Assembly (NCBI GenBank): GCA_020344015.1
Contig: CP070812.1
Coordinates: 4,261,489 to 4,325,488 of the forward strand
Source: Gemmatimonadota bacterium
GTDB lineage: Bacteria; Gemmatimonadota; Gemmatimonadetes; Palauibacterales; KS3-K002
Reading direction: 5' to 3'
DNA length: 64,000 nucleotides
In this document: one piece after another, positions 9,009-26,678 of the stretch
How the letters are laid out: the number at the start of each line of letters is the position of its first letter
How positions within the stretch are numbered: position 1 is the stretch's first letter
The notes under the pieces: model-generated
Database searches by the model: none
The model's input: only the letters and a program-made list of their open reading frames with translations
What the model was told of the DNA's origin: nothing
Translations under genes and position numbers: made by a program

Positions 9009-11429
9009 ATGTCGCGTTTCCGTAGGCTCATAGTCGAGGCGCATCGTCGCTCGATCTGGCAGGTGCTGCTCATCTACTTGGGTGCATCGTACGCGGTCCT
9101 CGAAGCGGTCGATCTGTTCACCGAGCGCTTCGGCCTGCCGGCCTGGTTCTTCCCGACCGCCGCGGTGCTCCTGTTGATCGGGCTGCCGATCGTGCTGGCG
9201 ACGGCCCTGGTCGAGAACGCCGAGGGCGCGGCTCGGGAAGCCGGCGGCGAGGGCGGGGGCGAAGACCAACTTGAGTACGCGCCGAGGCGCTCCGGTCGCC
9301 AGGCCAAACGTCGACTGACCTGGCGCAACGCCATCGCCGGCGCGGTGATCGCCTTTGCGGTCTGGGGGGTGGTGGCAGCCGGCTGGATGCTTCTCGGAGG
9401 TGGAAGGCCCGGCGGTGACGGAGCCGGTGAAGCTGGGTTGGACCCTGGTGTCGTCGCCGTCCTCCCCTTCCGCGTTGCCGGTGCCGATCCGGCGATCGTC
9501 TACCTGAGGGAGGGGATGGTCGACCTTCTGGCCGCCAAGCTCACCGGCGAAGGGGGTCCCCGGGCGGTCGATCCGAGAGCGGCCATCAGCGCCTGGAACC
9601 GCGCCGGCGACTCGAGAGACGCCGACCTCACGGAGGCGGCTGCACTCGACCTCGCGCGCTCCCTGGGCGCCGGTCGCGTTCTGCTCGGCGGCCTGGTTGG
9701 AACGGCCGGGCACGTGGTCCTCAACGCGTCGCTCCTCACGGTCGATGCGGAGGATCGCGGCGTCCAGGCGAGCGTCGAAGGCACGACCGACAGCCTGACG
9801 GCGCTGGTAGACGGGCTCACCGCGCAACTTCTGGCACGTGGGGCCGGTGAGTCGCGACAGCGGCTCGCCGCCCTTACCAGCACATCGCTACCTGCGCTAC
9901 GCGCCTATCTCGAGGGCCAGGCGACTTACCGCAGCGGTCGCTTCGTCGATGCGGAACGACTCTTCCGCGAGGCCGTCGACCTCGACCCTACTTTCTCACT
10001 CGCCGCGCTGGGGCTTGTGTCGGCGCGCTACTGGACGGAAAACGGTTTCAGCCGCGAAGCGATCAGCATCGCATGGGCGCATCGGGATCGCCTGAGCGAG
10101 CGTGACCGAGCGCTCCTCGTCGCACTGGCCGGACCCAATTTCCCGCAAGGGTCCCCGTACGGGGAAGTTTTCGCCGCCCTGCAGCGAGCCGTGGATTCCG
10201 CGCCCGACAGACCCGAAGCCTGGTACTGGCTGGGTGAATCGTACTACCACAACGCGCGGCAGCTCGGCTACGCCGACGCACACCGCCACGCGGAGGACGC
10301 TTTTCGCCGGGCCGTCGACCTCGACTCGACATTCTCGGCCCCCGTCGGGCATCTGCTGGACCACGCGCTGATGAGGGGCGACAGCGCGAGAGCGGAGGAA
10401 GTGTTGGCGTACTACCTCACCGTCAATCCGACCGGCGAGTTTCGGGATTACGAGCTCTGGCAAACCGCGCTCACTTTCGGAGACAGCGTCGCCCTCGACT
10501 CGCTGCGACGGAAGTTCCTCGAGATGAACGTCCTGCCCCTGCGCGCCGTCGTGAGGACCAGCATGCTCAAGGGGTACGACCCGGATGACGCCGAGCTAGC
10601 GGCCGCGATCCTGCGCGAGCGGCCGGCGGCGCGGGGCGAACGTGTCACGACACTATGGCTGTTGCACGATTTCGAGTTGAACCGCGGACGGCCCTCCGCC
10701 GCGTTGGCGGTGACGGAGGAAATTGGACGCATCCAGCCCGATGGTCGGCTGCGCCTTCGGCTCCGAGTCTTCGACGCTCTGTATGGAGAAGGCGACGAAG
10801 CCGCCGCCACCCATGCGGTTGATTCGCTTATGCGCGAGGCCTCGGCACCGCTTTCGCCCGACGTGAACCAGCGGGCGTCACAGCTAGCCGACCTATGTGC
10901 GGTCGAGCATTGGCGGCTTTGGAACGGTGACTTTTCGTCGGCGCCCACATCGATTGATAGGCTGCGCAGCTCGAGCTACCCGGCCGACTCGATCTGGACG
11001 GCGAGCGGCGCGAATACCTGTGCGTCCATCCTCGAGGCGGTCCACGCCTCGGCAACGGGCCAACCTGACAGTGAGATCCTGGTGGCCCAGCTCGACTCAC
11101 TCCTCCGACCGATTCCATACGGTGCCATCGTCCCCGAACGCCTCGACCGAACGGGCACGCTGGCCGTCGCCCGGCTCCTGGAATCACAGGGCGATATCGA
11201 GGCTGCCTATCGCGCGCTCCAGCGGCGCGAGTTCTTTCAGACACGCTACCTCGCGAATTACCTGCGCGAGGAAGCCCGGCTGGCCGCGCTCTTGGGTGAG
11301 CGCGAGGCCGCCGTGCGGGCTTACCGCCACTACCTGACCTTGCGGTCCGACCCGGAACCGGCGCTGGCCGTGGAGGTCGAGCGGGTCCGCGCCGAATTGG
11401 GGAGGCTCACCGCCGAGTCGGGACCCTAG
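9009..11429 (+). CDS. membrane-anchored TolB-N-like/TPR repeat protein
   Basis: N-terminal amphipathic motif RRSIWQVLLIYLGASYAVLEAVD is followed by a TM helix. Next comes VVAVLPFRVAGADPAIVYLREGMVDLLAAKL, a TolB-N-like periplasmic module common in kinase/cyclase-associated proteins. About 500 aa of TPR-like helical repeats follow. Confidence 0.7.
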   Translation: MSRFRRLIVEAHRRSIWQVLLIYLGASYAVLEAVDLFTERFGLPAWFFPTAAVLLLIGLPIVLATALVENAEGAAREAGGEGGGEDQLEYAPRRSGRQAKRRLTWRNAIAGAVIAFAVWGVVAAGWMLLGGGRPGGDGAGEAGLDPGVVAVLPFRVAGADPAIVYLREGMVDLLAAKLTGEGGPRAVDPRAAISAWNRAGDSRDADLTEAAALDLARSLGAGRVLLGGLVGTAGHVVLNASLLTVDAEDRGVQASVEGTTDSLTALVDGLTAQLLARGAGESRQRLAALTSTSLPALRAYLEGQATYRSGRFVDAERLFREAVDLDPTFSLAALGLVSARYWTENGFSREAISIAWAHRDRLSERDRALLVALAGPNFPQGSPYGEVFAALQRAVDSAPDRPEAWYWLGESYYHNARQLGYADAHRHAEDAFRRAVDLDSTFSAPVGHLLDHALMRGDSARAEEVLAYYLTVNPTGEFRDYELWQTALTFGDSVALDSLRRKFLEMNVLPLRAVVRTSMLKGYDPDDAELAAAILRERPAARGERVTTLWLLHDFELNRGRPSAALAVTEEIGRIQPDGRLRLRLRVFDALYGEGDEAAATHAVDSLMREASAPLSPDVNQRASQLADLCAVEHWRLWNGDFSSAPTSIDRLRSSSYPADSIWTASGANTCASILEAVHASATGQPDSEILVAQLDSLLRPIPYGAIVPERLDRTGTLAVARLLESQGDIEAAYRALQRREFFQTRYLANYLREEARLAALLGEREAAVRAYRHYLTLRSDPEPALAVEVERVRAELGRLTAESGP

Positions 11430-13622: not shown

Positions 13623-16526
13623 TTATTGCGGGGCAATTCCCAGTTCTCTTCCGCCGCTCAGGGTGTAGGCCGCCCAATAGTAGGGCGCCTCGTACGTTGA
13701 ATCGGCCATCATGTCTCGCTGCGCCCGCGCCAGCGCCTCGACCGGTGGGGCGTCCTGCAAATGGCGATAAAAGCGCGCGGCGAAGACCCCGGCGCCCGCA
13801 TCGTCCACCGGCCAGAGTGTCGCGATTACATTGCCTGCACCGGCGTATAGAAAAGCCTGCGCCAGCGTCGCAAAATCCTCGCCGCGCCTGTACTCGGTTG
13901 ACCAAGCGACTCCGACTCCGGTCTCGCAGCCAGATAGAAACACGAGCGGGCTGCGAACCTTCAGTCCGAGCAACTCGTGGACCTCCAACCTACCATCGCT
14001 GGGGCGCCCGTCGGTGGCGTCGCCCCTGAGCTCGATTCTCGAGAACATCGGGTTGCGAGAATTCAACACACCGTGCGTGGCTACATGCACTATCGCGCCG
14101 TCCGAGAGGGCCCGGCGTAGCTCTGCTTCCGTCGCGCGATCACCGATGAAGGTCCCGGCTTCGGGCAACGCTTCAGCAAACGCCGCCACCTCCTCCCGTG
14201 TGGCTGGCAAACGTCTAGGAAATGGCGCGAAGCTTCGCCCGGGAGCGCTGCGCACCTGGGGACCGTGGGTATCGCCAGCGCGGAGGATGGGAAGCGCTGC
14301 CGCCGTCGGCAGATGCAGAAGCGAAAAACCCTCCGCCAGGTAACGGCCGCTCGCTTGATCTCGCAGAGCAGCAAATGGCAGGTACGACAACTCCGCGTGA
14401 GGCACAATGATCAGACGATGCACTCCCTCGAGCGCGCCGGCTGTCACCGCCGGTCGAATAAGGTCATTGTAGAGCCGTGCCAAGGCTGCGTTTGCGTCAC
14501 TCCAGCGCCGGCGCCTTGCCAGCAGGTCACGCGCAACGCGAATACGGCTCAACAGCCCGATGGATCCGGAGCTGGCTTCCAGGCTGAGAATACCTTGCTG
14601 GGTGACCACGAACAGAAGTACCCGATCCGGCGTCACCAGGTACTCCAACAGCGCCTCTCCCGGCTCCAGAACGCTGACGATTGAACCGGCGCTCGCCGGG
14701 GCACTGCCGAGCAACGTCGCCCCTCCGATGTCGCGAACCAGGGCCCGGCTGCGCAGCGATTCGTATTCGGAGCGAGCCGCCGCGAGAGCGCTTGTCAGTT
14801 CCTCCTCCGACGCCACGAAGTCCGCACCACGTTCACCCGACGGGACCTCCTCGACTTCACCCAGTCGCGTGAGGAGCTCATCGATTCTGCGCAAGACCTC
14901 CTCCGCCTCGGCAAGCTCGGCGGCTGACCCTGTCGAGCCAAGCTCATGCCGCGCCGCCGTCAGGTGCTCTAGCAGCGCACGCCCCCGTCCGGCATCCGCC
15001 ACCTGAAAGGCCTCCTCGATCTCACCGCGACGAAGGTGCACCAACACGAGATCCGAGTAGACGCTCGCTTTGTCGGAGAGGTAAGACGTTCGGAGATACC
15101 CGGTCGAGAACCTCGCGCGGGCTCGCTCAACAGCCGCCACTGCTCTCTGGCCCTCAACCACCGCAGAATCGAGCACACCCAGACGCGAGTACGCACGCGC
15201 CGCCAGAGCGTGCGCCTGCCACTCGGTGCCGTAGCCGCCGCGGGTGAGATCGTCTTGAACGGTCTCCAATACTCGAAGCACTTCCGCGCCGTCACGGTCC
15301 TGATCGGCGAGACGCGCTCGCGTGAGTGCGATCTCCACCCGAGCACTACGGACCCCTAGTCCTCGCGAGAGGCTGTCTGCTACACTGAGATGCCTTTGTG
15401 CTTCCTCGTGAGCGCCCCTCTCATGCGCCATCTCGGCGGACACCGCCAGGTCGAACAACTCCTCCAAAGGCGCGCCCGTCTCTTGGTGAATGCGCAGCGC
15501 TTCATCTACATAGCGTCCCGCCAGGCCAAGATCGCCTAGCAGTGCGTGGATCTCGGCTGCGCTCCTGAGGTTGACCCCGATCTCGATCTGTAGCCCCAGT
15601 TCTTCGTTGATCTCGTTCGCATCGCGGTACAGTTCAAGGGCGCGCCGATAGTCGCCCGCCTTCAGGTAGAACTCGGCCATGATCTCCAGGTTGCTCGCCT
15701 CTTCTTGACGCAGGCCTTGCCGGCGAGTTAGGGCTAGTGCGCTGTCCAGCGCCGCGAACGCGAGACTCGGCTCACCCAACGCGTCATAAGCGGTCGCCAG
15801 TTGGCCCAGTGCATTCTGCTCACCTGTTGCATAGTCGATCGATTCGTAAAGGCGACGCGCTTCCCGCAGCGACTCGACCGCCGCGACCGGATTGCCGACC
15901 TTGATATCGAGCATCGCCAGGTTGTTGAGAGCATTACCTTCGATGCGCGCATCGCCGAGGGCCCGGCCGGCCTCCCTCATACCGTTGAAGCCGCGGCGCG
16001 CCTCCGTGAACCGACCCAAGTCGGTAAGCACCAATGCTAGGTTCCCCTCGGCAGCAACAAGCCGTCTTTGGTCTCCCACCCCCCGAGCCGCCGCAGCTGC
16101 CAGGCGGAAGAGATCGGTGGCATCGGACAGCCTTGATTCGTTCCAGGCGAGCAGGCCCAATGCGTTGTACGACCTCGAGAGTTTGTCTTCGAGCCCGAGG
16201 TGCAACTTAAGCCGCAGAGCTTCTTCGCCCAGTCGGCGCGCCGCTTTGTAGTCGCCGGTTCTCCAAGCCGCCAGCCCAAGCCAGGTCAACACCTCCGACT
16301 CTGCCAGCGAGTCGGACTGCGATCGCGCCATCTCCAGCGCGAGCCGGAACGACGCCTGCGCCTCATCGAACTCGCCGGCCCAGTACGCTTTTTCAGCAGA
16401 TGACATTAGCGAATCGAGGGGCGACGCCCAGACCTCAACGGTCCGCGCCTCCAAATAGACTCCGGTCTCTCTTTGGGACGCCTCATCGTCGCCGAAACAG
16501 GCGGACTGAACAAGCGCCGCGCACAA
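13623..16526 (-). CDS. TPR-repeat CHAT-domain protein (caspase-like His/Cys protease fold)
   Basis: The N-terminal ~600 aa carry many TPR-like repeats. The C-terminal CHAT has catalytic dyad motifs IVHVATHGV and LVFLSGCETG. Start is 8 nt after the anti-sigma stop. No clear signal peptide. Confidence 0.85.
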   Translation of the reverse strand: MCAALVQSACFGDDEASQRETGVYLEARTVEVWASPLDSLMSSAEKAYWAGEFDEAQASFRLALEMARSQSDSLAESEVLTWLGLAAWRTGDYKAARRLGEEALRLKLHLGLEDKLSRSYNALGLLAWNESRLSDATDLFRLAAAAARGVGDQRRLVAAEGNLALVLTDLGRFTEARRGFNGMREAGRALGDARIEGNALNNLAMLDIKVGNPVAAVESLREARRLYESIDYATGEQNALGQLATAYDALGEPSLAFAALDSALALTRRQGLRQEEASNLEIMAEFYLKAGDYRRALELYRDANEINEELGLQIEIGVNLRSAAEIHALLGDLGLAGRYVDEALRIHQETGAPLEELFDLAVSAEMAHERGAHEEAQRHLSVADSLSRGLGVRSARVEIALTRARLADQDRDGAEVLRVLETVQDDLTRGGYGTEWQAHALAARAYSRLGVLDSAVVEGQRAVAAVERARARFSTGYLRTSYLSDKASVYSDLVLVHLRRGEIEEAFQVADAGRGRALLEHLTAARHELGSTGSAAELAEAEEVLRRIDELLTRLGEVEEVPSGERGADFVASEEELTSALAAARSEYESLRSRALVRDIGGATLLGSAPASAGSIVSVLEPGEALLEYLVTPDRVLLFVVTQQGILSLEASSGSIGLLSRIRVARDLLARRRRWSDANAALARLYNDLIRPAVTAGALEGVHRLIIVPHAELSYLPFAALRDQASGRYLAEGFSLLHLPTAAALPILRAGDTHGPQVRSAPGRSFAPFPRRLPATREEVAAFAEALPEAGTFIGDRATEAELRRALSDGAIVHVATHGVLNSRNPMFSRIELRGDATDGRPSDGRLEVHELLGLKVRSPLVFLSGCETGVGVAWSTEYRRGEDFATLAQAFLYAGAGNVIATLWPVDDAGAGVFAARFYRHLQDAPPVEALARAQRDMMADSTYEAPYYWAAYTLSGGRELGIAPQ

Positions 16527-16534
16527 GGCAGCGA

Positions 16535-17155
16535 CTAGTGCCCTGCGCCGTCGTTCTGACGCAACGTCGAGAATTGCTTGACTCCCGTAGTGGTGGATTG
16601 ACCGTCAGCTAACAGCGCGTCGACGTACCAGAAGTAGATACGATCGGGTAGCAGAGTTTCCGGCGTTGGAACAGCCACAGTCGTATCCGACGTCGTAGTG
16701 CTCCATACCACCTGACCATCTGCTTCGGTCAGGGTCAACCGGTAAGAGGCATCGGGCGCTGCTGAGCGCCACACAAACACGACCTCATCGCCCAGCAGAG
16801 CGGTGCCGTCGACGGGAGCAACGACCTGGAATCTCGGAGTTGTGGCCAGCTGCGCTTCAGTGTCGGTACCTCTCAGGACCGGCCTCGAATCCGGTCCGGA
16901 TATCTTAGGTCCGAGGAAAAGGATGGCAGCGATAGCCGCCGCAGCCGTCACTGGACCTGCCACGTACCACGGACTGAAACGCTTCAGCTCCTTTAGATCC
17001 CGAGACACCTCGATGACTTCGCGTCGGCACTCATCGCATGTGGCCAGATGAGCTTCGACTCGGGCTGTCTCCTCGTTGCTGATAGCGCCCTCCAGATAAC
17101 CGGCGACGATATCGCTGCTCAGGTGTTCGGCCAAAGACCCATCCTCTGTCATCAC
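16535..17155 (-). CDS. zinc-finger anti-sigma factor with TM helix and ~120-aa extracytoplasmic domain
   Basis: HLATCDECRREV is the ZAS H-x3-C-x2-C motif. TM segment is WYVAGPVTAAAAIAAILFLG. The gene is immediately downstream of the ECF sigma gene. Confidence 0.7.
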   Translation of the reverse strand: MMTEDGSLAEHLSSDIVAGYLEGAISNEETARVEAHLATCDECRREVIEVSRDLKELKRFSPWYVAGPVTAAAAIAAILFLGPKISGPDSRPVLRGTDTEAQLATTPRFQVVAPVDGTALLGDEVVFVWRSAAPDASYRLTLTEADGQVVWSTTTSDTTVAVPTPETLLPDRIYFWYVDALLADGQSTTTGVKQFSTLRQNDGAGH

Positions 17156-17258
17156 AGTCTCAGCGCTACCATGAACAACGTGCCTCCATTCTTATTGGAC
17201 GGACAACCACACCTCGTCTTGCAGCGGTCCGTTTCCTACGTCCGGCACACAGGCAGAA

Positions 17259-17921
17259 TCAAGGCGATGCATCCTCGACGCCTCGCTGCATTAGGTCCTG
17301 CCGGAGCGACCTGCAGATCAAGTCAAGACGACGATAGACACTAAAGACGGACGGAAATCGCATTAATCTGGCGATCTCACGAACCGAGATTTCGTCGTGG
17401 AATCTCAACTTCAAGAGAAGCTGATCCCGATGATCGAGGCGCCCGATCGCCGACTGTAAAGCGTCTCGGAGCTCAGCTTCACGTAACTCGACCTCCGGAT
17501 TGCCGCGGGAGGGATCGGGGACAGCAGACAGGTCAATCTCCACGGCCACCAGATCAGCCAAGCGTCTTCGGGTCGCCCGCGCTTCAAGGGCGGCACGACC
17601 TGACTGTGCCCTATTGCGGCCGTATACGCGCCGCCCGTAGTCCAGGCAGAGGCGCCGGGCTACAACTGCCAGCCAAGTAGAAAACTTGCCGCGTCCCGCG
17701 GTGGCATAGGCGCGCAATCGCCTAAAATCGTCCCGGCGAAGCTCCTCCAGCATGTACGCGTAGCGGTCCATGGCGCTGTCGTAGTCCCGGCTGTAGGCGT
17801 GCGCCGCATGCAGGAGCAGGCGGTTGTATTTGGCGGTGAACGCCGCCCAGTTCGTTTCAACAGAGGGAGGGTCGGACGAATCGAGCAGGCGGGATAACTC
17901 GGGAGGAAGCGATGTTGCCAT
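17259..17921 (-). CDS. ECF-type sigma-70 family RNA polymerase sigma factor
   Basis: Region 2 is KFSTWLAVVARRLCLDY. Region 4 HTH is LLLKLRFHDEISVREIARLM. Start taken at MATSLPPELS (aa 43 of the track ORF, which begins with TTG). Confidence 0.8.
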   Translation of the reverse strand: MATSLPPELSRLLDSSDPPSVETNWAAFTAKYNRLLLHAAHAYSRDYDSAMDRYAYMLEELRRDDFRRLRAYATAGRGKFSTWLAVVARRLCLDYGRRVYGRNRAQSGRAALEARATRRRLADLVAVEIDLSAVPDPSRGNPEVELREAELRDALQSAIGRLDHRDQLLLKLRFHDEISVREIARLMRFPSVFSVYRRLDLICRSLRQDLMQRGVEDASP

Positions 17922-19272: not shown

Positions 19273-21261
19273 GTGCGGAACGAGAGAATCTGCATCTCGA
19301 AGCTCGCCGCGGGGCTGATCTTCCTCACGGCGTCGGCGCTGGCCCTCCCCGGGAGCGGCCAGGCGCAAGCGACGTCGTATCTGGATTTCGATCAGCTCAC
19401 GCGCCAGCTCCGATCTCTGGTGAATAGCTCCGACATGGCCCGCATGAACTCGGTGGGGACATCGATCGAGGGCCGGGAGATCTGGGTCGTGGAGATCGGG
19501 AATCCATCAGGAAAGCCGTTGGAGGAACGCCCCGCCGTCCTGGTGATCGGAAACCTCGAGGGCGACCACGTGGTCGGCAGCGCCCTGGCGCTGGAGACCA
19601 TCCGCTACCTCCTGGACGGAGCCGAGGACAACGCCGAAATCCAGACGATCCTGGAGGAACAGACAGTCTACGTCTTCCCGCGGGTGAACCCCGACGGTGC
19701 GGAAGCGATGTTCGCGTCGGTCAAGTGGGAGAGGTCGAGGAACGCCCGCCCCTACGACGATGACAACGACGGCCGTATCGACGAGGACGGGCCCGAAGAC
19801 CTGAACGGGGACGGACTCATCACCGTCATGCGCGTCCCCAATCCTTCCGGCGACTACATGATCGACACGGTCGACGCTCGCCTTATGAAGAAGGCGGATC
19901 CCACAAAGGGCGAGCAGGGAGAGTACACGCTCTACTGGGAGGGCACCGACTCGGACGGCGACGGGTTCTTGAACGAGGACGGGCCCGGCGGCGTCGATCT
20001 CAACCGCAACTTCCAGCACGCCTATCCCTACTGGCAGCGGGACGCGGGTCCTCACATGGTCAGCGAGCCGGAGAGCCGCGCGCTGATGGATTTCGTGATC
20101 GCCCACCGCAACATCGGCGCGATCCTGGCATTCGGTCGCACAGACAATCTGGTTACGCCTCCCGACTCGCGAGGCAACGTCGCCGACGCGAGCATCCTGG
20201 ACCTGCCATCGTTCGCGGACGCTTCAAACGCGGAAATCTCCGAGGTCGGTGTATTCGGAGCTCAGCAACCTTCCGGCTTCGGTTTCTTCTTCTTCCGCGG
20301 CGGCAGAGGATCCGGCTTCCGCGGCGCACAACCGGGACGCGACAACGATCCGAACGCCGGCCGCAGGCCGGCCACCACGTTCAATCAGGCGGACCTCGAG
20401 TACTTCAATGCCGCCTCCGAAGCATACAAGTCCATCACAGGGATCGAGTCGGTCGGAATCCACCGGACGCCCGAAGGCGCCTTCTTCCAGTACGGCTACT
20501 TCCAGTTCGGCGTCCCCTCCTTCAGCACCCCGGGGTGGGGGCTTCCCTCGGCAGAGCCAGAAGAGCCTGGCGAGGAAACTCCGGGCGCCGCTGAGGAGCG
20601 CCCCGAAGGCGCCGCCCGTGAGAGGCCTCCTGGGGGCGCCAGACCGGCGGGCGCAGGCGCGAGAGCCGGCGGCGGGAGAGCCATGCCTCAGGGAGGACGT
20701 CCCGGCGGCGGTGGCGTTGCGGCCGGGGCGGATGCTCGCGTTCTCTCCGCCCTCGACGCCGCCGGGATCGACGCCTTCGTGGACTGGACCGCCTACACTC
20801 ACCCGACACTGGGTGAGGTCGAGATCGGCGGGTTCCGACCCTACGCCGCGACTAATCCCCCCGCCGAGGATCTTGCGGGGCTGGGGCGTGACCACGGCGA
20901 GTTCGTCGCCCGCCTGGCCCGTATGCTCCCGCGGGTGACGATCGTCGAGACCGAGGTGACGGCGCACGGCGGTGGCATCTACACCGTGGCGGTCGAGATC
21001 GAGAACTCGGGATACTTCCCGACATCGCTCCAACACGGGGTCGTGTCCCGTTCGGTCGGGCCGACGACCGTGCAGATCCACGTTCCACCGGAAGATGTGA
21101 TCACTGGCGACGCGAAGACGAGCTCGATTCGACAACTGAACGGTTCGCACAACCGAGAGCGTTTCGAGTGGGTGATTCGGGGACGCGATGGTGCGAGGGT
21201 AGAGATCACTGCGCTCGCCCAAAAGGGCGGGACCGACAGTGCCACCGTGACGCTGAGGTGA
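19273..21261 (+). CDS. M14-family carboxypeptidase-like protein, secreted, with divergent metal site and low-complexity insert
   Basis: GTG start follows AAGGAGA. Signal peptide is KLAAGLIFLTASALALPGSGQA. It aligns along its length with the downstream M14 gene (VYVFPRVNPDGAE vs FYIVPTVNPDGRD). EGDH replaces the HGNE zinc motif. There is a Gly/Pro/Arg-rich ~120-aa insert. Confidence 0.8.
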   Translation: MRNERICISKLAAGLIFLTASALALPGSGQAQATSYLDFDQLTRQLRSLVNSSDMARMNSVGTSIEGREIWVVEIGNPSGKPLEERPAVLVIGNLEGDHVVGSALALETIRYLLDGAEDNAEIQTILEEQTVYVFPRVNPDGAEAMFASVKWERSRNARPYDDDNDGRIDEDGPEDLNGDGLITVMRVPNPSGDYMIDTVDARLMKKADPTKGEQGEYTLYWEGTDSDGDGFLNEDGPGGVDLNRNFQHAYPYWQRDAGPHMVSEPESRALMDFVIAHRNIGAILAFGRTDNLVTPPDSRGNVADASILDLPSFADASNAEISEVGVFGAQQPSGFGFFFFRGGRGSGFRGAQPGRDNDPNAGRRPATTFNQADLEYFNAASEAYKSITGIESVGIHRTPEGAFFQYGYFQFGVPSFSTPGWGLPSAEPEEPGEETPGAAEERPEGAARERPPGGARPAGAGARAGGGRAMPQGGRPGGGGVAAGADARVLSALDAAGIDAFVDWTAYTHPTLGEVEIGGFRPYAATNPPAEDLAGLGRDHGEFVARLARMLPRVTIVETEVTAHGGGIYTVAVEIENSGYFPTSLQHGVVSRSVGPTTVQIHVPPEDVITGDAKTSSIRQLNGSHNRERFEWVIRGRDGARVEITALAQKGGTDSATVTLR

Positions 21262-23057
21262 TGGAAATGAACTACGTAAAAGAGAACAGAATGGTGACGA
21301 GGCTAGGCGCGGCCTTCCTGGCCATCGCCATCATCCTGGCCGGCGCGCCCGACCTGAGCGCCCAGCAGCGCGGTGGTTCCGACCCGGAGCACAGGTTGCC
21401 ACTCACCTGGGATCGCTGGCTCGATCACGCGGGCATGGCTGAGCGGATGAGGCAGATGGCCGACACGTGGCCCGAGTTCCTGACCCTCACGTCACTGGGC
21501 AAGAGCTACGGCGGCCGCGACCTGTGGATGATGACCATCAACAACCCCAGCACCGGCCCCGAGATGAACAAGGCGGCCATGTACATCGAGGCCAACGTGC
21601 ACGGGAACGAGATCCAGGGCGGTGAGATCTGCCTCTATACGATCTGGTACCTGATGGAGAACTACGGCCGCATAGAAGAGATCACGCGCCTGGTCGACGA
21701 GCGGGTCTTCTACATCGTTCCGACCGTCAATCCCGACGGCCGCGATTACTTCATGCACGGCACGGGCTCCGGCTCGCGCACCGGGCACGTACCCGTCGAC
21801 AGCGACGGAGACGGCCTCTTCGATGAGGATGGACCCGACGATCTGAACGGGAGCGGCATGATCGAGCAGATCCGCAAGTACGTCCCCGGTGAAGGTACCC
21901 ACCGCATCAGTCACGACGATCCGAGGATCATGGAGACCGTCCCCTCGGGCGAGACCGGTGACTGGATCCTGCTGGGGTCCGAGGGAATCGACAACGACGG
22001 CGACGGGCGCGTCAACGAGGACCCGGTCGGCGGCTACGACCCGAACCGCAACTACGGCGCGGGCTGGCAGCCCAACTACATCCAGGGCGGCTCGATGAAT
22101 TACCCGTTCGAGCTGCCGGAATCGCGTGCCACCAACGACTTCTGGATGACGCATCCCAACATCGCCGGCGCCCAGTCGTACCACAATTCGGGCGGGATGA
22201 TCCTACGCGGCCCGGGGACCGCCTGGCACGGCACCTACCCCAGAGAGGACATCCGCGTCTACGACGAGCTGGGCGAAAACGGCGAGCGGATCCTTCCTTA
22301 CTACAACTACCTTATCATCTGGCAGGGGCTCTATACGGTGCACGGGGGCTCCATCGACTGGACGAATGATGGGCTCGGCGCCGTCTCCTTCTCCAACGAG
22401 CTCTGGAGCGGCAGCCTGTACTTCGGCAGCGATCTGCTACGAGAACAACAGGAGGACCCGGACTCGCCGATCTCGGGCCAGAAGTCGCGGTTCTTCTTCG
22501 ATGACTTCGTCGAGTTCGGCGACAACTACGTCGAGTGGACGCCATTCGATCATCCACAGTTCGGAGCGGTAGAGCTGGGCGGGTGGAAGAAGTACTTCGG
22601 TCGGATAAACCCACGCTTCACGAGCATGGAGCAGTTCCACCGCAACATGGCCTTCACACTGTATCACGCCGATCAGATGCCGCTCATGTCTATCGGTGAA
22701 ACCACGGTAGAGAACGTGGGCGGGAACGTGTACAGGGTGCGGGTGGACATCAGGAACGAACGGCTGATCCCGACCATCACCGTGCGGGCGCGGCAGAACA
22801 ACGTCGTGCGCCCCGATCTCCTCACTGTTGACGGTAACGTCGAGGTCATCGCCGCGGGCTGGGTGCCCAACAAGCACCGGCCCGGCCCCACCGACCGAAT
22901 CGACCAGGACGAGCTCGACCGCATCATCATCCGCAGCGGCCACCCCGGCCGCACGACCCGGACCATCGAGTACCTGGTCCGCGGCTCCGGCTCGATGACG
23001 GTCACCTACTCTGCAGTCAAGGGCGGCACGGCTTCCACAACCGTGCGGCTCCGCTGA
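21261..23057 (+). CDS. M14-family zinc carboxypeptidase, secreted
   Basis: Signal peptide is MVTRLGAAFLAIAIILAGAPDLSAQ. The HGNE zinc motif lies in IEANVHGNEIQGGE. VNPDGRDY and SYHNSGG supply the third His. ATG overlaps the upstream stop by 1 nt. Confidence 0.85.
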   Translation: MEMNYVKENRMVTRLGAAFLAIAIILAGAPDLSAQQRGGSDPEHRLPLTWDRWLDHAGMAERMRQMADTWPEFLTLTSLGKSYGGRDLWMMTINNPSTGPEMNKAAMYIEANVHGNEIQGGEICLYTIWYLMENYGRIEEITRLVDERVFYIVPTVNPDGRDYFMHGTGSGSRTGHVPVDSDGDGLFDEDGPDDLNGSGMIEQIRKYVPGEGTHRISHDDPRIMETVPSGETGDWILLGSEGIDNDGDGRVNEDPVGGYDPNRNYGAGWQPNYIQGGSMNYPFELPESRATNDFWMTHPNIAGAQSYHNSGGMILRGPGTAWHGTYPREDIRVYDELGENGERILPYYNYLIIWQGLYTVHGGSIDWTNDGLGAVSFSNELWSGSLYFGSDLLREQQEDPDSPISGQKSRFFFDDFVEFGDNYVEWTPFDHPQFGAVELGGWKKYFGRINPRFTSMEQFHRNMAFTLYHADQMPLMSIGETTVENVGGNVYRVRVDIRNERLIPTITVRARQNNVVRPDLLTVDGNVEVIAAGWVPNKHRPGPTDRIDQDELDRIIIRSGHPGRTTRTIEYLVRGSGSMTVTYSAVKGGTASTTVRLR

Positions 23058-23064
23058 TGCACGA

Positions 23065-23097
23065 GGGGCAGGAGGGCGCAAGCCGCCCTCCTGCCCC
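23065..23097. terminator. strong GC hairpin between convergent genes (bidirectional terminator candidate)
   Basis: GGGGCAGGAGGGCG-CAAGC-CGCCCTCCTGCCCC is a perfect 14-bp stem with a 5-nt loop. It sits 8 nt after the M14 stop and 13 nt after the minus-strand lipoprotein stop. The U-tract on the plus side is weak (CAACTTTCATT). Confidence 0.55.
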
Positions 23098-23109
23098 GCC
23101 CAACTTTCA

Positions 23110-23511
23110 TTAACGAGATTCCGGTGACGACGCGCTCTCGGTCTGACCGAACTTGCATTCCGGCACACCCCGGGTCAGACCGTAATCCGTGATGACCGGC
23201 CCGACCTCCGCCGGAAATTCGCCGTCCCACCACCCATCGTAACGCGCGCAGATCGCTCCTTCTGCTTGCGCCGTTCCGATCCAGCCGCTCTCGTCCGCGT
23301 AGAGGATCGTCGTCGTTACTCTCGCCGATACACTGTGCTCCGGCAGTTCGAGCTCCGTCGTGTAGGTCCCGTTATCCGCGAAGTAGTACTCCTGCGCTGT
23401 CCCAACCGCCCACAGGCTCCTTTTCACCACGGCGCTCGAGACTTGTTCCTGCCCGGACGAGCAACCGACCACTAGGGTCAGCGCCGTCAGTCCTATCAAC
23501 AGCACCTTCAC
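23110..23511 (-). CDS. hypothetical lipoprotein
   Basis: Signal plus lipobox LTLVVGCSSG. Length is 133 aa with no family recognised. It is the first gene of the AT-richer islet. Confidence 0.5.
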   Translation of the reverse strand: MKVLLIGLTALTLVVGCSSGQEQVSSAVVKRSLWAVGTAQEYYFADNGTYTTELELPEHSVSARVTTTILYADESGWIGTAQAEGAICARYDGWWDGEFPAEVGPVITDYGLTRGVPECKFGQTESASSPESR

Positions 23512-23924
23512 CGTTCACCTCGCCGGGTTGGGATGACCTGGAACCCCTGGTCCTCGAAATCTTGATCGAGGGCCAACGCTTCCTGTATGCCCTCTGCCTC
23601 CATCAGCACGAAGCTGACGGAGTCCACCAAGCTCAACCCGCGGCGGTCGGTGCTGAACAGTCGTTCAAGCGCGCGGCGGTGTAGGCCTTCGTCGACCCAG
23701 TGTACCCCGAGGAGAGGAACGAGTCGGTTCTCGAAGTCCCGAACGGCCGCGAGCCCGAATCGATGCTGCAGCAGCGCGCACGTCTCGAGCAAGACATAGT
23801 TGGTGCTCACCAGGCGCCGGTGCGCCTTTAGTAGTCCGCTGAACGCGTCCACCACGATGTCGTGATCCTCTTCTGTGCGGACGAGGAGAGCGTAGAGCGC
23901 CGACGTATCGACGAACACGCTCAT
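23508..23924 (-). CDS. vapC: PIN-domain toxin VapC
   Basis: MSVFVDTSALYALL...LLET...D... shows the PIN acidic residues. A 4-nt overlap with the upstream RHH antitoxin suggests operon coupling. Confidence 0.85.
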   Translation of the reverse strand: MSVFVDTSALYALLVRTEEDHDIVVDAFSGLLKAHRRLVSTNYVLLETCALLQHRFGLAAVRDFENRLVPLLGVHWVDEGLHRRALERLFSTDRRGLSLVDSVSFVLMEAEGIQEALALDQDFEDQGFQVIPTRRGER

Positions 23925-24184
23925 CCTTCGTACGCCTCAGACAGATGCTCATCGTGGTCTTCCGCGACCCGAGATCGACCTTCCGGGTCGGCGTACTTCC
24001 CCACCACCGCCATAGCCTCGCGCACCAGCCCGTCTCGGCCAAGCTCCAGCTGCTCACCGGCCAACCGCTCCGCCACGCAGCGCCGCACGGCCTCCGACAT
24101 CGAGATCCCTACGCGATTCGCCCAAGCCTTCAAGCGCCGGTGCATCTCATCGGGCAATTGGATCTGAGTACGTACCATCTTCAT
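23921..24184 (-). CDS. vapB: ribbon-helix-helix antitoxin VapB
   Basis: MKMVRTQIQLPDEMHRRLKAWANRVGISMSEAVRRCV is an RHH/CopG fold. Start moved from the track M1 to the internal MKM. The track M1 would include the promoter palindrome. Confidence 0.7.
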   Translation of the reverse strand: MKMVRTQIQLPDEMHRRLKAWANRVGISMSEAVRRCVAERLAGEQLELGRDGLVREAMAVVGKYADPEGRSRVAEDHDEHLSEAYEG

Positions 24185-24187
24185 GCC

Positions 24188-24210
24188 ACCATTATATGAT
24201 ATCATAATGT
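24188..24210 (-). promoter_or_regulatory. vapBC promoter/operator: TATAAT -10 box overlapping a 12-bp palindrome
   Basis: On the minus strand, TATGATATCATA is a perfect palindrome at 24195-24206. It is followed by TATAAT (24196..24191) about 7 nt before the MKM start. RHH antitoxins typically bind such palindromes. Confidence 0.4.
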
Positions 24211-24266
24211 AATGATCAAGCTGCTACCCAGAGTGGGAGGCTGGCGGACGCGACCCGAGAAGCTTT

Positions 24267-24611
24267 CTATTCGGCCTCGAGCAGGATGTGCAGTTTCGAG
24301 ACCACGTCTCTTATAACACGTCCAGGTACCTGGCAGATGAACTCCACCTTCCGCTTCTCCCAATCCAAGCTCTTGACCTGATCCGACAACACCACGCCTT
24401 CCACACCACTCCCCTTCGGGGTTTCGACTTCGAAGGGATAGCCCTTGACACGCGACGTGATCGGGCAGACCAAAGCCAGGCCGACCTTCTCATTGTAAGA
24501 AGCCGGTGAGACTACGAGCGCCCGTCGCCGCCCCCCTTGTTCGTGACCCGGCTGCGGGTCGAAGCTCAGCCAAATCGCGTGACCGCGGCCCGGCACGTAG
24601 CCCACTACCAC
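24267..24611 (-). CDS. mazF: MazF/PemK-family endoribonuclease toxin
   Basis: VPGRGHAIWLSFDPQPGHEQGGRRRALVVSPASYNEKVGLALVCPITS is typical PemK/MazF. It overlaps the antitoxin by 7 nt. Confidence 0.85.
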   Translation of the reverse strand: MVVGYVPGRGHAIWLSFDPQPGHEQGGRRRALVVSPASYNEKVGLALVCPITSRVKGYPFEVETPKGSGVEGVVLSDQVKSLDWEKRKVEFICQVPGRVIRDVVSKLHILLEAE

Positions 24612-24847
24612 ACCTCCCTACCGACTGAACGGCCCGTCTCGATTTCGCCATGCCTGTTCTGCGGCGTCACACCGGCGAGCAAATCGGTGAGGGAATAACC
24701 CTCAGCCCTCACCGCCCTCACGCTCAACTTGTCGCCATCCAGCTCGATCTCCACCCGCGACCCCTCGGAGATCCCGGCCTCGACCGCCAGGGCTTTCGGG
24801 ATCCGCAGCGCAAGGCTGTTACCCCACTTTCGTACGTGCGATTCCAT
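24605..24847 (-). CDS. mazE: MazE/AbrB-type (SpoVT_AbrB) antitoxin
   Basis: HVRKWGNSLALRIPKALAVEAGISEGSRVEIELDGDKLSV is a swapped-hairpin AbrB fold. Confidence 0.85.
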   Translation of the reverse strand: MESHVRKWGNSLALRIPKALAVEAGISEGSRVEIELDGDKLSVRAVRAEGYSLTDLLAGVTPQNRHGEIETGRSVGREVW

Positions 24848-24968
24848 GAGTCTCTATCTCAGTTAACTCTTTGTTTCATAGACATTTACATTATGTCCAT
24901 ATACGTATCTACATAGTATCTACATAGAATCTACATCAGCTCCGTTGTTCCGTCAAACTGCGACCACG
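24848..24968 (-). promoter_or_regulatory. AT-rich mazEF upstream region with 11-bp tandem repeats and an inverted repeat
   Basis: ATCTACATAG x3 occurs with period 11 at 24907-24937. GACAT-N7-ATGTC inverted repeat lies at 24881-24897. GC content is much lower than the surrounding DNA. Confidence 0.45.
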
Positions 24969-26678
24969 TCACCCGCAGCGGTCGCACCCGGCGCACCGCC
25001 GGTGCGGTAACACTTCCCCGAAGTAGCGGAGCAGGTAGCGACGCCGGCACCCGCCCTGGTACGCGTACGTCTCCATCCGCTTGAGCTTGCGCATCTCCAG
25101 CGCACGCCGTGCGGCGACCCGCTCCCAGTCGACGGGCAATGCGTCGGGATCCAGCTTCAGGTCGGCGGGCACGTAGCCCGACCTGAGACCGTCATCGCGC
25201 CAGCCGATGAGGCCGGCCGCCTGAAGGGCATCGAGGGCGTCACGGGCGGCGCCGAAGTCGCCACCGGTCCAGCGGGCGACTTCGCGACGCGAGATACGCA
25301 GGTGGCGGCGCTCGGCCTGAGCCGAGATCCGGGCCAGGCCTTCGAGCACGGGAATAACGGCGAGGCGTTCTTCCGAGCCGTTGTCGTACTCGAGCAACTC
25401 ACGCACCTGAGCCGAGCTGGCGATCCATCTGATGGTACAGCTGGAGCGGTTCGCGGTGTCTTCGACGGCGCCTGCATCGCGGAGGATGCGTAGCGCCGAG
25501 TAGATCTCGCCCTCGCCCTTGGCGTCTTTGACGCGAGCCGCAAACTGGGCGGGCGTGACGGGACCGCCGGCGGCGCGCACCGCATCGCGAAGCGCGCTGA
25601 ACGTCGCACGCACAATCTTCCGTGGAGGATAGGATGAGCGGATGAAGAACTCGTGGGTGAAGCGATCGCGGTAACTATGCAAGAGGGTGCACTCGGCGGG
25701 CTCGCCGTCGCGGCCGGCGCGGCCCGCCTCCTGATAGTACGCCTCGAGCGATCCCGGCATCTGGAAGTGGATCACCCGGCGAACGTTGTCCTTATCGATC
25801 CCCATGCCGAAAGCGTTGGTGGCGACGACGACCGGCAGGTTCCCGACGGTCCACTCCTCCTGCACCCGGGCGCGGCGCTCGCGCGGCAGCCCGGCATGGT
25901 AGGCGGCGGCATCGATTCCTTCACCTCTCAGTAGTTCGCTCGTAGCCTCGACCACTTTGCGCGTCGATGCGTAGACCACCGCCGTCTCGTCGCCGTTCCC
26001 GAGGGTCGAGATCAGCAGCCCAGCCTTCTCGCTCAGCTTCTCTTCGCGGCGCACGGTCCAGCGCAGGTTGGGACGATCGAAGCCGCGGACGATGACGCGG
26101 GGCTCGCGGAGCCCCAATTCCTCGACGATATCGTCCCGCACCTCGGGCGTCGCCGTGGCGGTCAGCGCCATGAGGCGTGGTCGGCCGATCTCCCGCCATA
26201 CGTCCCGCAGCAGTAGATAGCTGGGCCGGAAATCGTGACCCCACTGAGAAACGCAATGCGCTTCATCGATGGCGACCAGTCCGATTTCCGTCGCGCCCAG
26301 CGCGCGCCGGAAGACGGGACTTCCGAACCGCTCCGGCGCCACGTAGAGCATATCGAGCTCGCCGGCGGCCGCCCGGGCGAGGCGCTCCTCGATCTCGGCG
26401 CTCGACAGCGTGCTGTTGACCAGGGCGGCCCGGATCCCACGGCGTTCCAAGGCGTTCACCTGATCGAGCATTAGGGCGATGAGCGGCGAGACGACGAGGG
26501 TGAGGCCTGGGAGGACGAGGGCGGGGACCTGGAAGCAGAGGGATTTGCCGCCGCCGGTGGGCATGACGATCAACGTGTCGCGACCGCGCAGGATCGACAG
26601 GATCGCCTCACGCTGACCGGGCCGGAAATCGCCGTACCCGAAGTACCGCCGGAGAGCGGAACGTGCCTCTGACCACAT
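24969..26678 (-). CDS. recQ: ATP-dependent DNA helicase RecQ
   Basis: FRPGQREAI, MPTGGGKSLCFQ, DEAHCVSQWGHDFRP, the helicase C-terminal domain, the zinc-binding RQC region and the HRDC-like C-terminus are all present. Length is 569 aa. Confidence 0.95.
   Translation of the reverse strand: MWSEARSALRRYFGYGDFRPGQREAILSILRGRDTLIVMPTGGGKSLCFQVPALVLPGLTLVVSPLIALMLDQVNALERRGIRAALVNSTLSSAEIEERLARAAAGELDMLYVAPERFGSPVFRRALGATEIGLVAIDEAHCVSQWGHDFRPSYLLLRDVWREIGRPRLMALTATATPEVRDDIVEELGLREPRVIVRGFDRPNLRWTVRREEKLSEKAGLLISTLGNGDETAVVYASTRKVVEATSELLRGEGIDAAAYHAGLPRERRARVQEEWTVGNLPVVVATNAFGMGIDKDNVRRVIHFQMPGSLEAYYQEAGRAGRDGEPAECTLLHSYRDRFTHEFFIRSSYPPRKIVRATFSALRDAVRAAGGPVTPAQFAARVKDAKGEGEIYSALRILRDAGAVEDTANRSSCTIRWIASSAQVRELLEYDNGSEERLAVIPVLEGLARISAQAERRHLRISRREVARWTGGDFGAARDALDALQAAGLIGWRDDGLRSGYVPADLKLDPDALPVDWERVAARRALEMRKLKRMETYAYQGGCRRRYLLRYFGEVLPHRRCAGCDRCG

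Follow-up and report, generated by a model that had tools for sequence, protein, structure and literature searches.

The segment at positions 23110-24968 very probably carries two independent, canonical type II toxin-antitoxin (TA) operons, mazEF and vapBC, that have long resided in a variable stretch bounded by recQ and genes for M14 peptidases. Positions are those of the window, the whole 64-kb stretch of DNA that was analysed. On the minus strand the gene order is recQ, mazE-mazF, vapB-vapC and a lipoprotein gene, followed by a strong hairpin; recQ flanks the interval on one side and M14 peptidase (carboxypeptidase) genes, including M14b, flank it on the other. All five ORFs of the segment are present on the minus strand where a sequence-only reading of this DNA had placed them. 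That reading had described two complete type II TA pairs (ribbon-helix-helix/PIN and AbrB-type MazE/MazF), which Pfam matches and intact ORFs bear out, and it was also correct in noting a small lipoprotein gene, a 133-aa ORF with a lipobox, and in locating the segment between M14 peptidase genes and recQ. The features discussed below are these:

23065-23097, no strand assigned: GC-rich hairpin with a perfect 14-bp stem and 5-nt loop, between the convergent M14b and lipoprotein genes (by folding)
23110-23511, minus strand: lipoprotein with a type IV pilin-like head domain, 133 aa (lipobox; pilin homologues)
23508-23924, minus strand: vapC, PIN-domain toxin, 138 aa (Pfam PIN)
23524-23529, no strand assigned: junction of a derived 1,525-bp deletion (blastn breakpoints versus the sister lineage L081)
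23921-24184, minus strand: vapB, ribbon-helix-helix antitoxin, 87 aa (Pfam RHH_1, FitA-like_RHH)
24185-24266, minus strand: vapBC promoter/operator region (10/12 promoter match)
24267-24611 (longest ORF, 114 aa), minus strand: mazF, endoribonuclease toxin (Pfam PemK_toxin)
24605-24847, minus strand: mazE, AbrB/SpoVT-type antitoxin, 80 aa, C-terminus ...GREVW (Pfam MazE_antitoxin)
24848-24968, minus strand: mazEF promoter/operator region (GC 0.38)

The mazEF pair was identified from both of its proteins. MazE matched the Pfam family MazE_antitoxin (PF04014) at 9.9e-13 and, from end to end with the C-terminal ...EVW tail included, solved MazE proteins (PDB 7d2n, 1.1e-20; E. coli MazE 1ub4_C, 3.9e-11); its NCBIfam equivalog score of 45.8 bits lies below the cut-off of 113. 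MazF covered 109/109 positions of the PemK_toxin profile (PF02452, 1.1e-23), scored above the cut-off of its NCBIfam equivalog (121.2 versus 120 bits) and matched the structures PDB 7d28/7dhp (6.5e-38) and E. coli MazF (about 3e-23). The probable start of mazF is the GTG at 24605 (112 aa); gene finders choose it in identical or related contigs, and it overlaps the mazE stop by 1 nt and has GGGAGG just upstream. Numbered along the 114-aa ORF, R29 (GGRRRALV) and T52 (CPITSR) are retained, in blocks that align with MazF-dr; we take Arg29 and Thr52 to be the catalytic residues of MazF in E. coli numbering. The pair thus combines a PemK/MazF-domain toxin bearing Arg29/Thr52 with an upstream, overlapping MazE of AbrB/SpoVT fold, and it resembles E. 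coli MazEF and Deinococcus radiodurans MazEF-dr (7DHP/7D28/7D2N) in its antitoxin-first bicistron, its overlapping ORFs and its full-length MazF match. By analogy only, MazF may be expected to perform ACA-type cleavage (PMC7933679).

VapC matched the Pfam PIN family (PF01850) at 1.5e-10, and its closest solved relative is M. tuberculosis VapC20 (5wzf; 4.1e-11, 46 bits). Four acidic residues, D6, E47, D101 and D120, align with the VapC20 blocks FVDTS, GET, FVD and FDGDF. VapC20 is specific for the 23S sarcin-ricin loop, a specificity that need not transfer to the VapC of the window. No NCBIfam model matched VapC; a 100% identical protein (P0150), encoded on a 4.8-Mb NCBI contig of a Gemmatimonadota MAG, carries the name 'PIN domain-containing protein [Gemmatimonadota bacterium]', whereas looking up RecQ by exact sequence returned nothing. 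The VapB ORF (23921-24205) matched RHH_1 at 7.6e-6 (26.1 bits, cut-off 20.5) and FitA-like_RHH at 5.4e-6 (26.7 bits, just under the cut-off of 27), and gave nothing significant against PDB (best E 0.11). Its likely start is at 24184 (87 aa), as in gene-finder calls on identical or related contigs, and in the relative L087 an in-frame stop comes after the alternative ATG further upstream (24205). The vapB stop overlaps the vapC start (ATGA, 23921-23924), and the same pairing of RHH antitoxin and PIN toxin is seen in L081, L087 and L170. A PIN toxin with four acidic residues and an upstream, overlapping RHH antitoxin are the hallmarks of VapBC, and the likeness to RHH-type VapBC systems (e.g. 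FitAB-like; VapC20, 5WZF) extends from the acidic residues and the ATGA overlap to a palindrome in the promoter; unlike VapC20, the VapC of the window has a C-terminus altered by a deletion.

Both antitoxin genes precede their toxin genes, with overlaps of 1 nt (mazE/mazF) and 4 nt (vapB/vapC), and purifying selection acts on each of the four TA genes, with dN/dS of 0.06-0.24 (mazE 0.11-0.22, mazF 0.17-0.23, vapB 0.06-0.24, vapC 0.15). The assignment is based on domains, catalytic residues, overlaps, conservation of cis-elements and these selection statistics. From membership of their families, the AbrB-fold MazE would neutralise a toxic MazF endoribonuclease, and the ribbon-helix-helix VapB would neutralise a toxic PIN-domain RNase, VapC. 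PADLOC gave no matches for any of the five proteins, and an Rfam scan of 22800-25300 at E <= 1 also gave none.

Two promoter-like sites were found by scanning, one upstream of each TA pair, versus 0.5 expected. The mazEF promoter has a -35 of TTGACG (24956-24951) and a -10 of TAGATT (24933-24928), and three tandem 11-nt repeats at 24905-24937 (repeat family D1; minus-strand units GATGTAGATTC, TATGTAGATAC and TATGTAGATAC) overlap the -10. The block GTAGATTnnATGTAGATACnATGT, the -10 and a TTGnnG -35 are conserved across the window, L081, L088 and L002, the last with a RecQ of 72% identity. Autoregulation of mazEF is well established, and an AT-rich promoter with repeated sites overlapping the -10 fits such control. 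The E. coli mazEF operator is an 'alternating palindrome', whereas the candidate operator here consists of three direct 11-nt repeats; MazE probably binds these repeats and would through them repress its own promoter. The vapBC promoter has a -35 of TTGATC (24219-24214) and a -10 of TATAAT (24196-24191), with a perfect 12-bp palindrome, TATGATATCATA (24195-24206), that sits in the spacer and runs into the -10. The block TTGAT..ACATTATGATATCATA..ATGGTGGCATG is conserved in the window, L081 and L087 and is degraded in L088, where vapC is lost. We infer that this palindrome is bound by VapB as a candidate operator, through which VapB would repress the vapBC promoter. The vapB ATG lies only 6 nt past the -10, and transcription of vapB is likely to be leaderless.

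Comparison with relatives supports the view of the region as accessory that the sequence-only reading had taken, in that modules vary in presence and absence at about 90% RecQ identity. The recQ-to-peptidase interval takes at least five architectures at this distance, including vapBC only, higBA with mazEF and vapBC, and an inserted kinase or peptidase. Directly after recQ and on the same strand lies mazEF in the window, L081 and L002, and vapBC in L087 and L172, where mazEF is cleanly absent; mazEF is missing from L173 as well. In L088 and L170, higBA is wedged between recQ and mazEF. The lipoprotein gene is missing from L087, L088 and L170, and vapC has been lost in L088 and L168. Genes additional to those of the window in some relatives are higBA, a 948-aa kinase gene and a gene for a 391-aa peptidase-like lipoprotein, and higB itself is cut short in L088 and seems to be frameshifted in L001. 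In L002, where mazEF still adjoins recQ, MazE and MazF have 69% and 72% identity to those of the window; since MazFs of other phyla reach 60-69%, the L002 MazF is only slightly closer, and orthology of its mazEF is suggested by position and the shared operator, not by identity alone. More distant Gemmatimonadaceae RecQ loci (L050, L059, L064 and L072, about 49% identity) have none of the genes of the segment, and were left out of the inference because they may be paralogues.

The divergence of the genes speaks to their age. Relative to the sister lineage L081, dS is 0.38-0.58 for the TA genes, 0.52 for recQ and 0.375 for M14b. A tRNA scan of the 64-kb window found none, no integrase or transposase is present in the segment, where all ORFs are accounted for, and no flanking direct repeats were found around it. 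The TA genes are not recent imports and are as old as their flanks, because their dS equals that of the flanks, their codon usage is low-normal, and integrase, tRNA and flanking repeat are all lacking. Both TA pairs were very probably in place before this lineage and its sister lineages parted, and purifying selection has kept them since. Within the same recQ-M14 interval, relatives have lost, decayed or added modules. The locus resembles chromosomal TA islets or hot spots in that a single interval holds a stack of several promoter-bearing TA cassettes (mazEF and vapBC, joined in relatives by higBA), and in their independent presence and absence and toxin-first decay among close relatives. It is unlike them in having no mobility genes, tRNA or att-like repeats, a near-native composition, and modules as old as the flanks.

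One relative suggests how such modules might be exchanged. In L088 the higBA cassette has a complete recQ on one side and, on the other, an 84-bp second copy of the ancestral recQ 3' end. This copy still adjoins the mazEF promoter, and the layout looks as though incoming DNA had brought its own replacement recQ terminus. That the recQ 3' end is a preferred docking site, exchanging promoter-bearing TA cassettes without a recognisable integrase, is an idea we regard as improbable.

Improbable, and largely refuted as a recent, single-unit event, is the alternative that horizontal transfer recently brought in the entire 1.9 kb as one AT-rich islet, which then came to lie between recQ and the peptidase genes. 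In its favour are the presence/absence variation among close relatives and the wide distribution of the MazF and VapC families, members of which in many phyla have 60-69% identity, and part of the base composition also points this way. The mazEF upstream region (24848-24968) contains the lowest-GC 60-nt and 100-nt windows in the whole 64 kb (0.27 and 0.32), and the region upstream of vapB has the second-lowest 60-nt minimum (0.33), against a mean of 0.643 for the window. The claim of AT-rich intergenic DNA therefore stands for these two promoter regions, but not for the segment as a whole, since its coding DNA is only mildly GC-low (0.60-0.63), with GC3 of 0.73-0.79 versus 0.71-0.91 in the neighbours. 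All five genes lie somewhat below average, each at the 10th to 31st percentile in GC3 and codon score, and thus no gene is a compositional outlier. Combined, the coding GC falls at the 1.9th percentile of equal-sized chunks, and GC3 and codon score at the 21st. The proposed check of GC and codon usage accordingly gave a divided answer, with AT-rich promoter DNA and a low combined coding GC on one side and no single gene outlying in GC3 or codon usage on the other. The low-side GC3 and codon scores of all five genes, together with the 1.9th-percentile GC, leave room for acquisition from a foreign source long ago, with most of its signature since ameliorated; in a high-GC genome, AT-rich spots may be no more than promoters with their operators and need not mark foreign DNA.

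Against recent import of the block stand the dS to the sister lineage, which is the same as that of the flanking housekeeping genes, the restriction of AT-richness to promoter DNA, and the lack of tRNA, integrase, IS or flanking repeats. In addition, mazEF adjoins recQ with co-divergence even at 72% RecQ identity, and the modules occur separately in relatives, so that the block is not one unit. The segment shows the presence/absence polymorphism of a genomic island and neither the mobility signatures nor, outside the core of the lipoprotein gene, a divergence discordant with the flanks, and the horizontally acquired look ascribed to it is not supported as a sign of recent import.

The GC hairpin at 23065-23097 had been proposed to set the segment apart from the convergent peptidase gene. 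A scan for T-run terminators called none, this hairpin included, and it was for this reason assessed by folding and conservation. Its folding energy is -35.5 kcal/mol on the plus strand and -40.4 kcal/mol on the minus strand (z of -5.2 and -4.7), and 0/200 shuffled sequences folded equally well. The hairpin also comes directly after the stop codon of M14b in both L081 and L088; the latter lacks the lipoprotein gene, and in its hairpin a G:C pair at the stem's top has become C:G, a compensatory change. The strong hairpin next to the convergent peptidase gene is thus real, but it is most likely the terminator of M14b, possibly bidirectional; a role as the border of an islet was rejected, as it follows M14b even in relatives without the lipoprotein gene.

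We consider it very unlikely that mazEF is tied to recQ as a DNA-damage-responsive module, co-transcribed or co-regulated with it, although this would explain the persistence of mazEF at the recQ 3' end. Consistent with such a tie are the same-strand adjacency in the window, L081 and L002, the absence of any called terminator between recQ and mazEF, and the inclusion in the closest solved MazF/MazE pair of MazF-dr of D. radiodurans (7DHP), an organism whose MazEF-dr is reported to mediate a DNA-damage response (PMC7933679). Yet mazEF has its own conserved promoter, is cleanly missing from L087 and L172, where vapBC comes next to recQ, is separated from recQ by higBA in L088 and L170, and is absent from the more distant Gemmatimonadaceae RecQ loci.

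That either TA pair, or both, is a relic in decay and no longer functional is likewise very unlikely. Relatives do show TA decay in this interval (the loss of vapC and degraded vapB promoter in L088; higB in L088 and L001), and vapC of the window has lost its native stop codon. On the other hand, the four ORFs are intact with catalytic residues kept, dN/dS is low throughout, and the promoters and candidate operators are conserved.

The altered end of vapC results from a deletion that also changed the position of the lipoprotein gene. By blastn, window position 23529 corresponds to L081 position 8462 and 23524 to 9988; relative to L081, the deletion took the vapC stop codon, the gene for the 391-aa peptidase-MA-like lipoprotein and the lipoprotein gene's own upstream region. 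The last 5-6 codons of vapC are an extension (TRRGER) that arose from the deletion, derived in the window because vapC ends ...PS* in L081 and L087. An independent Logan contig, L167 (99.75% identical), has the identical junction. As a consequence the lipoprotein gene, 1.5 kb away from vapC in L081, now starts with a GTG that overlaps the vapC stop (GTGA, 4 nt) and retains a GAGGTG Shine-Dalgarno site; it is probably co-transcribed with vapBC, and would be a third cistron behind vapC only by way of this lineage-specific event.

The 133-aa protein has an N-terminal lipoprotein signal, MKVLLIGLTALTLVVGC, with the lipobox LVVGC. It had no match in Pfam (including N_methyl) or NCBIfam, and Foldseek against PDB returned nothing. 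Its homologues P0010, P0012, P0017 and P0026 have GFTLIELL; a PDB profile search with the family was dominated by the N-terminal helix of true pilins, and backs the identification of the homologues but not, in a direct way, of the protein in the window. Like type IV pilins and pseudopilins, it keeps the helix motif K.DLRNL.TAQE.YFADN.TY, followed by a beta-sheet that ends ..GW.ATA, and a C-terminal Cys pair (C88, C119), and thus the alpha/beta head domain with a C-terminal disulfide pair. Unlike them, it has a lipobox signal peptide in place of the prepilin leader, the N-methylation motif GFTLIELL and the hydrophobic alpha1-N, and so lacks the class III signal peptide with G/FTLIE and alpha1-N that define a type IV pilin. 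The protein cannot be processed by prepilin peptidase or assembled into a pilus. The protein joins a pilin head domain to a lipoprotein signal peptide; it has a separate history and no part in the TA systems, and its core dS of 0.079 is the sole deviation from the flank-like values.

That vapB, vapC and the lipoprotein gene form a functional three-gene system, with the translationally coupled lipoprotein as accessory or effector, is extremely unlikely: the GTGA overlap with its Shine-Dalgarno sequence and the recurrence of the junction in an independent contig would fit, but the coupling stems from the lineage-specific deletion, a 391-aa gene and intergenic DNA separate the two genes in the sister lineage, vapBC occurs without the lipoprotein gene in L087, L170 and L172, the pilin-like homologues are unrelated to TA systems, and the dS history differs from that of vapC. 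A lipoprotein as third TA component was discarded because of the synteny with the sister lineage, and the distant homologues hint that the family may regularly occur apart from vapBC.

The TA pairs are ordinary in kind, and NCBI names for the toxins already exist (PIN-domain protein; PemK/MazF toxin). In themselves the pairs are of little consequence beyond annotation quality; the pilin-head lipoprotein family is a small curiosity. To our knowledge, experimental TA work in this phylum is almost nil, and the conserved repeat and palindrome provide ready candidates for the operators of MazE and VapB. As this locus illustrates, TA modules stacked in a variable part of the chromosome can be of long standing, passed on vertically and maintained by selection even as the genes beside them are exchanged. 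If docking at the recQ 3' end recurs and is directed, and is not a single event of homologous recombination between lineages, it would represent an undescribed route for the shuffling of TA modules in Gemmatimonadota chromosomes.

Two toxin-antitoxin (TA) pairs and a small lipoprotein gene occupy the segment between recQ and M14b, the second M14 carboxypeptidase gene, and the relevant genes of 23110-24968 all lie on the minus strand.

Features of the segment and its borders (protein lengths from gene callers)
26678-24969, minus strand: recQ (Pfam DEAD, Helicase_C, RecQ_Zn_bind)
121 bp: recQ-mazE spacer
24847-24605, minus strand: mazE, 80 aa (Pfam MazE_antitoxin, 9.9e-13)
24611 or 24605 to 24267, minus strand: mazF, 112 aa (Pfam PemK_toxin, 1.1e-23)
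82 bp: mazF-vapB spacer
24184-23921, minus strand: vapB, 87 aa (Pfam RHH_1, 7.6e-6; FitA-like_RHH, 5.4e-6)
23924-23508, minus strand: vapC, 138 (or 133) aa (Pfam PIN, 1.5e-10)
23511-23110, minus strand: lipoprotein gene, 133 aa
23097-23065: hairpin, 3' of the lipoprotein gene
stop ending at 23057: M14b, M14 carboxypeptidase gene, converging on the segment

Start sites were chosen from gene callers on a near-identical Logan contig and on sister MAGs; because these pick 112 aa for MazF and 87 aa for VapB, the likely starts are 24605 and 24184, respectively. In L087, the locus of a relative, an in-frame stop comes after the ATG at 24205 that lies upstream of vapB. The observations of the sequence-only reading were thus confirmed, these being two complete pairs (RHH/PIN and AbrB-type MazE/MazF), a small lipoprotein gene, and a location between the peptidase genes and recQ; its interpretation of the segment as an AT-rich, horizontally acquired TA islet was supported in part. 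The longest ORF of the second M14 peptidase shares 94 nt (21168-21261) with the first peptidase gene; its true start probably lies at the ATG near 21267 (MEMNYVKE...), as the protein is called at 596 aa in relatives. The window RecQ is 90-91% identical to that of Gemmatimonadales MAGs. Its zinc-binding domain lies at the extreme C-terminus (residues 523-568), parted from the helicase core, which ends near residue 325-350, by approximately 170 residues without a match to RecQ of other phyla, and tblastn hits split into 5-351 and 514-568.

Pfam domains, catalytic residues and ORF overlaps agree that both TA pairs are complete. MazF has R and T at positions 29 and 52, where E. coli MazF has its catalytic Arg29 and Thr52. 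MazF aligned over its full length with solved MazFs (7d28/7dhp at 6.5e-38, E. coli MazF at about 3e-23), 7DHP being MazF-dr of Deinococcus radiodurans (PMC7933679), and narrowly passed the NCBIfam MazF equivalog model (121.2 bits, cut-off 120). MazE aligned end to end with the 7d2n MazE (1.1e-20) and E. coli MazE (3.9e-11), its C-terminal ...EVW included in the match. The best solved relative of VapC was VapC20 of M. tuberculosis (4.1e-11), with which the four acidic PIN residues D6, E47, D101 and D120 align. The ORF overlaps, TAGTG for mazE/mazF and ATGA for vapB/vapC, are of the classical kind. Computed against orthologues from 3-4 related lineages, dN/dS was 0.11-0.22 for MazE, 0.17-0.23 for MazF, 0.06-0.24 for VapB and 0.15 for VapC, similar to the values for the flanking RecQ (0.09-0.19) and M14b (0.08-0.14), indicating that the four TA genes are maintained by selection. 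The pairs add new, uncharacterised members to the MazEF and VapBC families, and the NCBI pipeline already names them so: MazF is a 'type II toxin-antitoxin system PemK/MazF family toxin', and a 100% identical VapC from a Gemmatimonadota MAG is a 'PIN domain-containing protein'.

The AT-richness attributed to the islet holds for its intergenic DNA but not for the segment as a whole. Against a window GC of 0.643, the region upstream of mazEF has a GC of 0.38 and holds the lowest-GC 60-nt and 100-nt windows in the 64 kb, and the region upstream of vapBC holds the second-lowest 60-nt minimum; by position, this AT-rich DNA coincides with promoter/operator DNA. The five coding sequences have a GC of 0.60-0.63 and a GC3 of 0.73-0.79. 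Against a background of 256 chunks, each of 110 codons and cut from 34 long genes of the window, the segment genes fall consistently on the low side (10th-31st percentile for GC3, 17th-23rd for codon score), but none of the five is an outlier. Taken together, they rank at the 21st percentile both in GC3 and in codon score, and at the 1.9th in total GC.

A promoter scan of 2.5 kb returned two sites (0.5 expected), each directly before one antitoxin gene. In the predicted mazEF promoter, a 17-nt spacer separates the -35 TTGACG from the -10 TAGATT; three tandem 11-nt repeats occupy 24905-24937, and the first of them contains the -10. Four aligned lineages, including one whose RecQ is just 72% identical, retain the block GTAGATTnnATGTAGATACnATGT, a TTGnnG -35 and the -10, while the DNA around these is not conserved. 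The predicted vapBC promoter (-35 TTGATC, 17-nt spacer, -10 TATAAT) is overlapped at its -10 by a perfect 12-bp palindrome, TATGATATCATA; this block is kept in the window, L081 and L087, and is degraded in L088, where vapC has been lost. The mazEF repeats and the vapBC palindrome would be the autoregulatory operators expected for AbrB-type and RHH-type antitoxins, respectively. Because the vapB ATG lies only 6 nt past the predicted -10 (24184-24196), the vapBC mRNA may have no leader or almost none, even though a GGTGG closely precedes the ATG. An Rfam search of the segment gave no match.

Loci of relatives were found by a RecQ anchor in genomes, an M14b anchor in metagenomes, and homologue look-ups.

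Gene content from recQ to M14b, listed on the recQ strand
Window: mazEF, vapBC, lipoprotein
L081-L083 (RecQ 91%): mazEF, vapBC, 391-aa peptidase-MA-like lipoprotein, lipoprotein
L087, L172, L173 (RecQ 90%): vapBC only, vapC ending 26 bp from the M14b stop
L170, L171: higB (Gp49), small ORF, mazEF, vapBC
L088, L168 (RecQ 90%): truncated higB, higA, 84-bp recQ 3'-end copy, mazEF, vapB, 948-aa Ser/Thr kinase-TPR protein; vapC absent
L002 (RecQ 72%): mazEF, then a TPR gene with a C-terminus like that of the L088 kinase
L090 (RecQ 67%, M14b 80%): 414-aa ORF and guaA-like gene; TA genes absent

Since the gene sets differ among relatives, the interval is a mosaic whose content is accessory by presence/absence, in line with the sequence-only reading, and the TA modules behave independently, each with its own promoter. 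In L088 an 84-bp stretch of the ancestral recQ 3' end is present as a duplicate (16524-16607) adjoining the mazEF promoter. The complete recQ of this locus differs at its 3' end, and after it comes a higBA cassette (16726-17282) in which higB is truncated to 70 aa and higA is intact. This duplicated terminus raises the idea that the recQ 3' end is a docking mechanism for TA cassettes, which we consider very improbable. In L001 a Gp49/HigB-like toxin gene, apparently frameshifted (two overlapping frames), and an XRE-type higA come after recQ (5229-5882); upstream of recQ is a gene for an 888-aa protein where the window has a PKD protein. The kinase-TPR gene of L088 and L168 takes the place of vapC and the lipoprotein gene (L088 12378-15224); the similar C-terminus of the gene after mazEF in L002 (7537-8208) is a possible sign that the kinase has long resided in the interval.

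This variability agrees with accessory DNA, but recent acquisition of the segment as a unit is not supported. Between the window and L081, dS was 0.58 for MazE, 0.38 for MazF, 0.40 for VapB and 0.49 for VapC, as compared with 0.52 for RecQ and 0.375 for M14b. Amino-acid identities agree (84-95% for the TA proteins, 86-94% for the flanks), and in L002 identities were 69% for MazE, 72% for MazF and 72% for RecQ. These matching values indicate that the TA genes were in place before the lineages split and diverged together with the chromosome. No tRNA was found in the window, and no integrase, transposase or flanking direct repeats were found for the segment. Paenibacillus, Deltaproteobacteria and the PVC group have MazF homologues that are 60-69% identical. 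An ancient foreign origin is plausible for TA genes generally, and may apply to these.

The hairpin at 23065-23097 is a strong stem between the lipoprotein gene and M14b (perfect 14-bp stem, folding z-score of about -5 on either strand), as had been proposed. It follows the M14b stop codon in L081 and also in L088, where a kinase gene rather than the lipoprotein gene lies downstream and a compensatory change from G:C to C:G is seen at the top of the stem; it is missing from L087, where vapC abuts M14b. The most likely role of the hairpin is as the terminator of M14b, which may act in both directions, rather than as an islet border or a part of the TA modules; it has no T-run and was not called by a consensus terminator scan.

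The lipoprotein had no match in Pfam, NCBIfam or PADLOC. A word-indexed search found only 2 close homologues, and an exhaustive HMMER search brought up 28 at E <= 1e-3; among these are several true prepilins, which carry GFTLIELL and the N_methyl motif. The prepilins and the window protein share the helix motif K.DLRNL.TAQE.YFADN.TY, the strands that follow it, and a conserved C-terminal Cys pair. Unlike type IV pilins, the window protein has a lipoprotein signal peptide and lipobox in place of the prepilin leader, N-methylation motif and transmembrane helix, and at least two distant homologues (P0003, P0006) are apparently, from their N-terminal sequence, lipoprotein versions of the same kind. 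The protein is thus predicted to be a type IV pilin head domain on a lipoprotein signal peptide; it is not itself a pilin, as it lacks the defining N-terminal feature of pilins.

Alignment with L081 placed the breakpoints at window 23529 (L081 8462) and window 23524 (L081 9988), such that 1,525 bp of L081 are missing from the window: the vapC stop codon, the 391-aa peptidase-MA-like gene, and the DNA upstream of the lipoprotein gene except its Shine-Dalgarno site. Because VapC ends in ...PS* in L081 and L087, the TRRGER tail of the window VapC (a 5-6-aa extension) and its GTGA overlap are derived features. The junction is also present in an independent Logan assembly (99.75% identical over 2,851 bp), so a fault in a single assembly does not explain it. 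The deletion would have coupled the lipoprotein gene translationally to vapC, and the vapBC promoter now probably drives expression of both. The lipoprotein does not belong to the TA modules, and its adjacency to vapC is an accident of the deletion rather than evidence for a tripartite vapB-vapC-lipoprotein system.

Inside the lipoprotein gene, approximately 300 bp (23150-23450) are 97-100% identical in nucleotides to L081 at about 10060-10360, whereas its flanks reach 81-91%. Over the entire gene, dS against L081 was 0.079 with a dN/dS of 0.54, as compared with a dS of 0.38-0.58 for its neighbours. These data are most simply read as a tract recently recombined between the two lineages and limited to the part coding for the mature domain. 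Any recent movement within the segment would concern this lipoprotein tract and not the TA genes.
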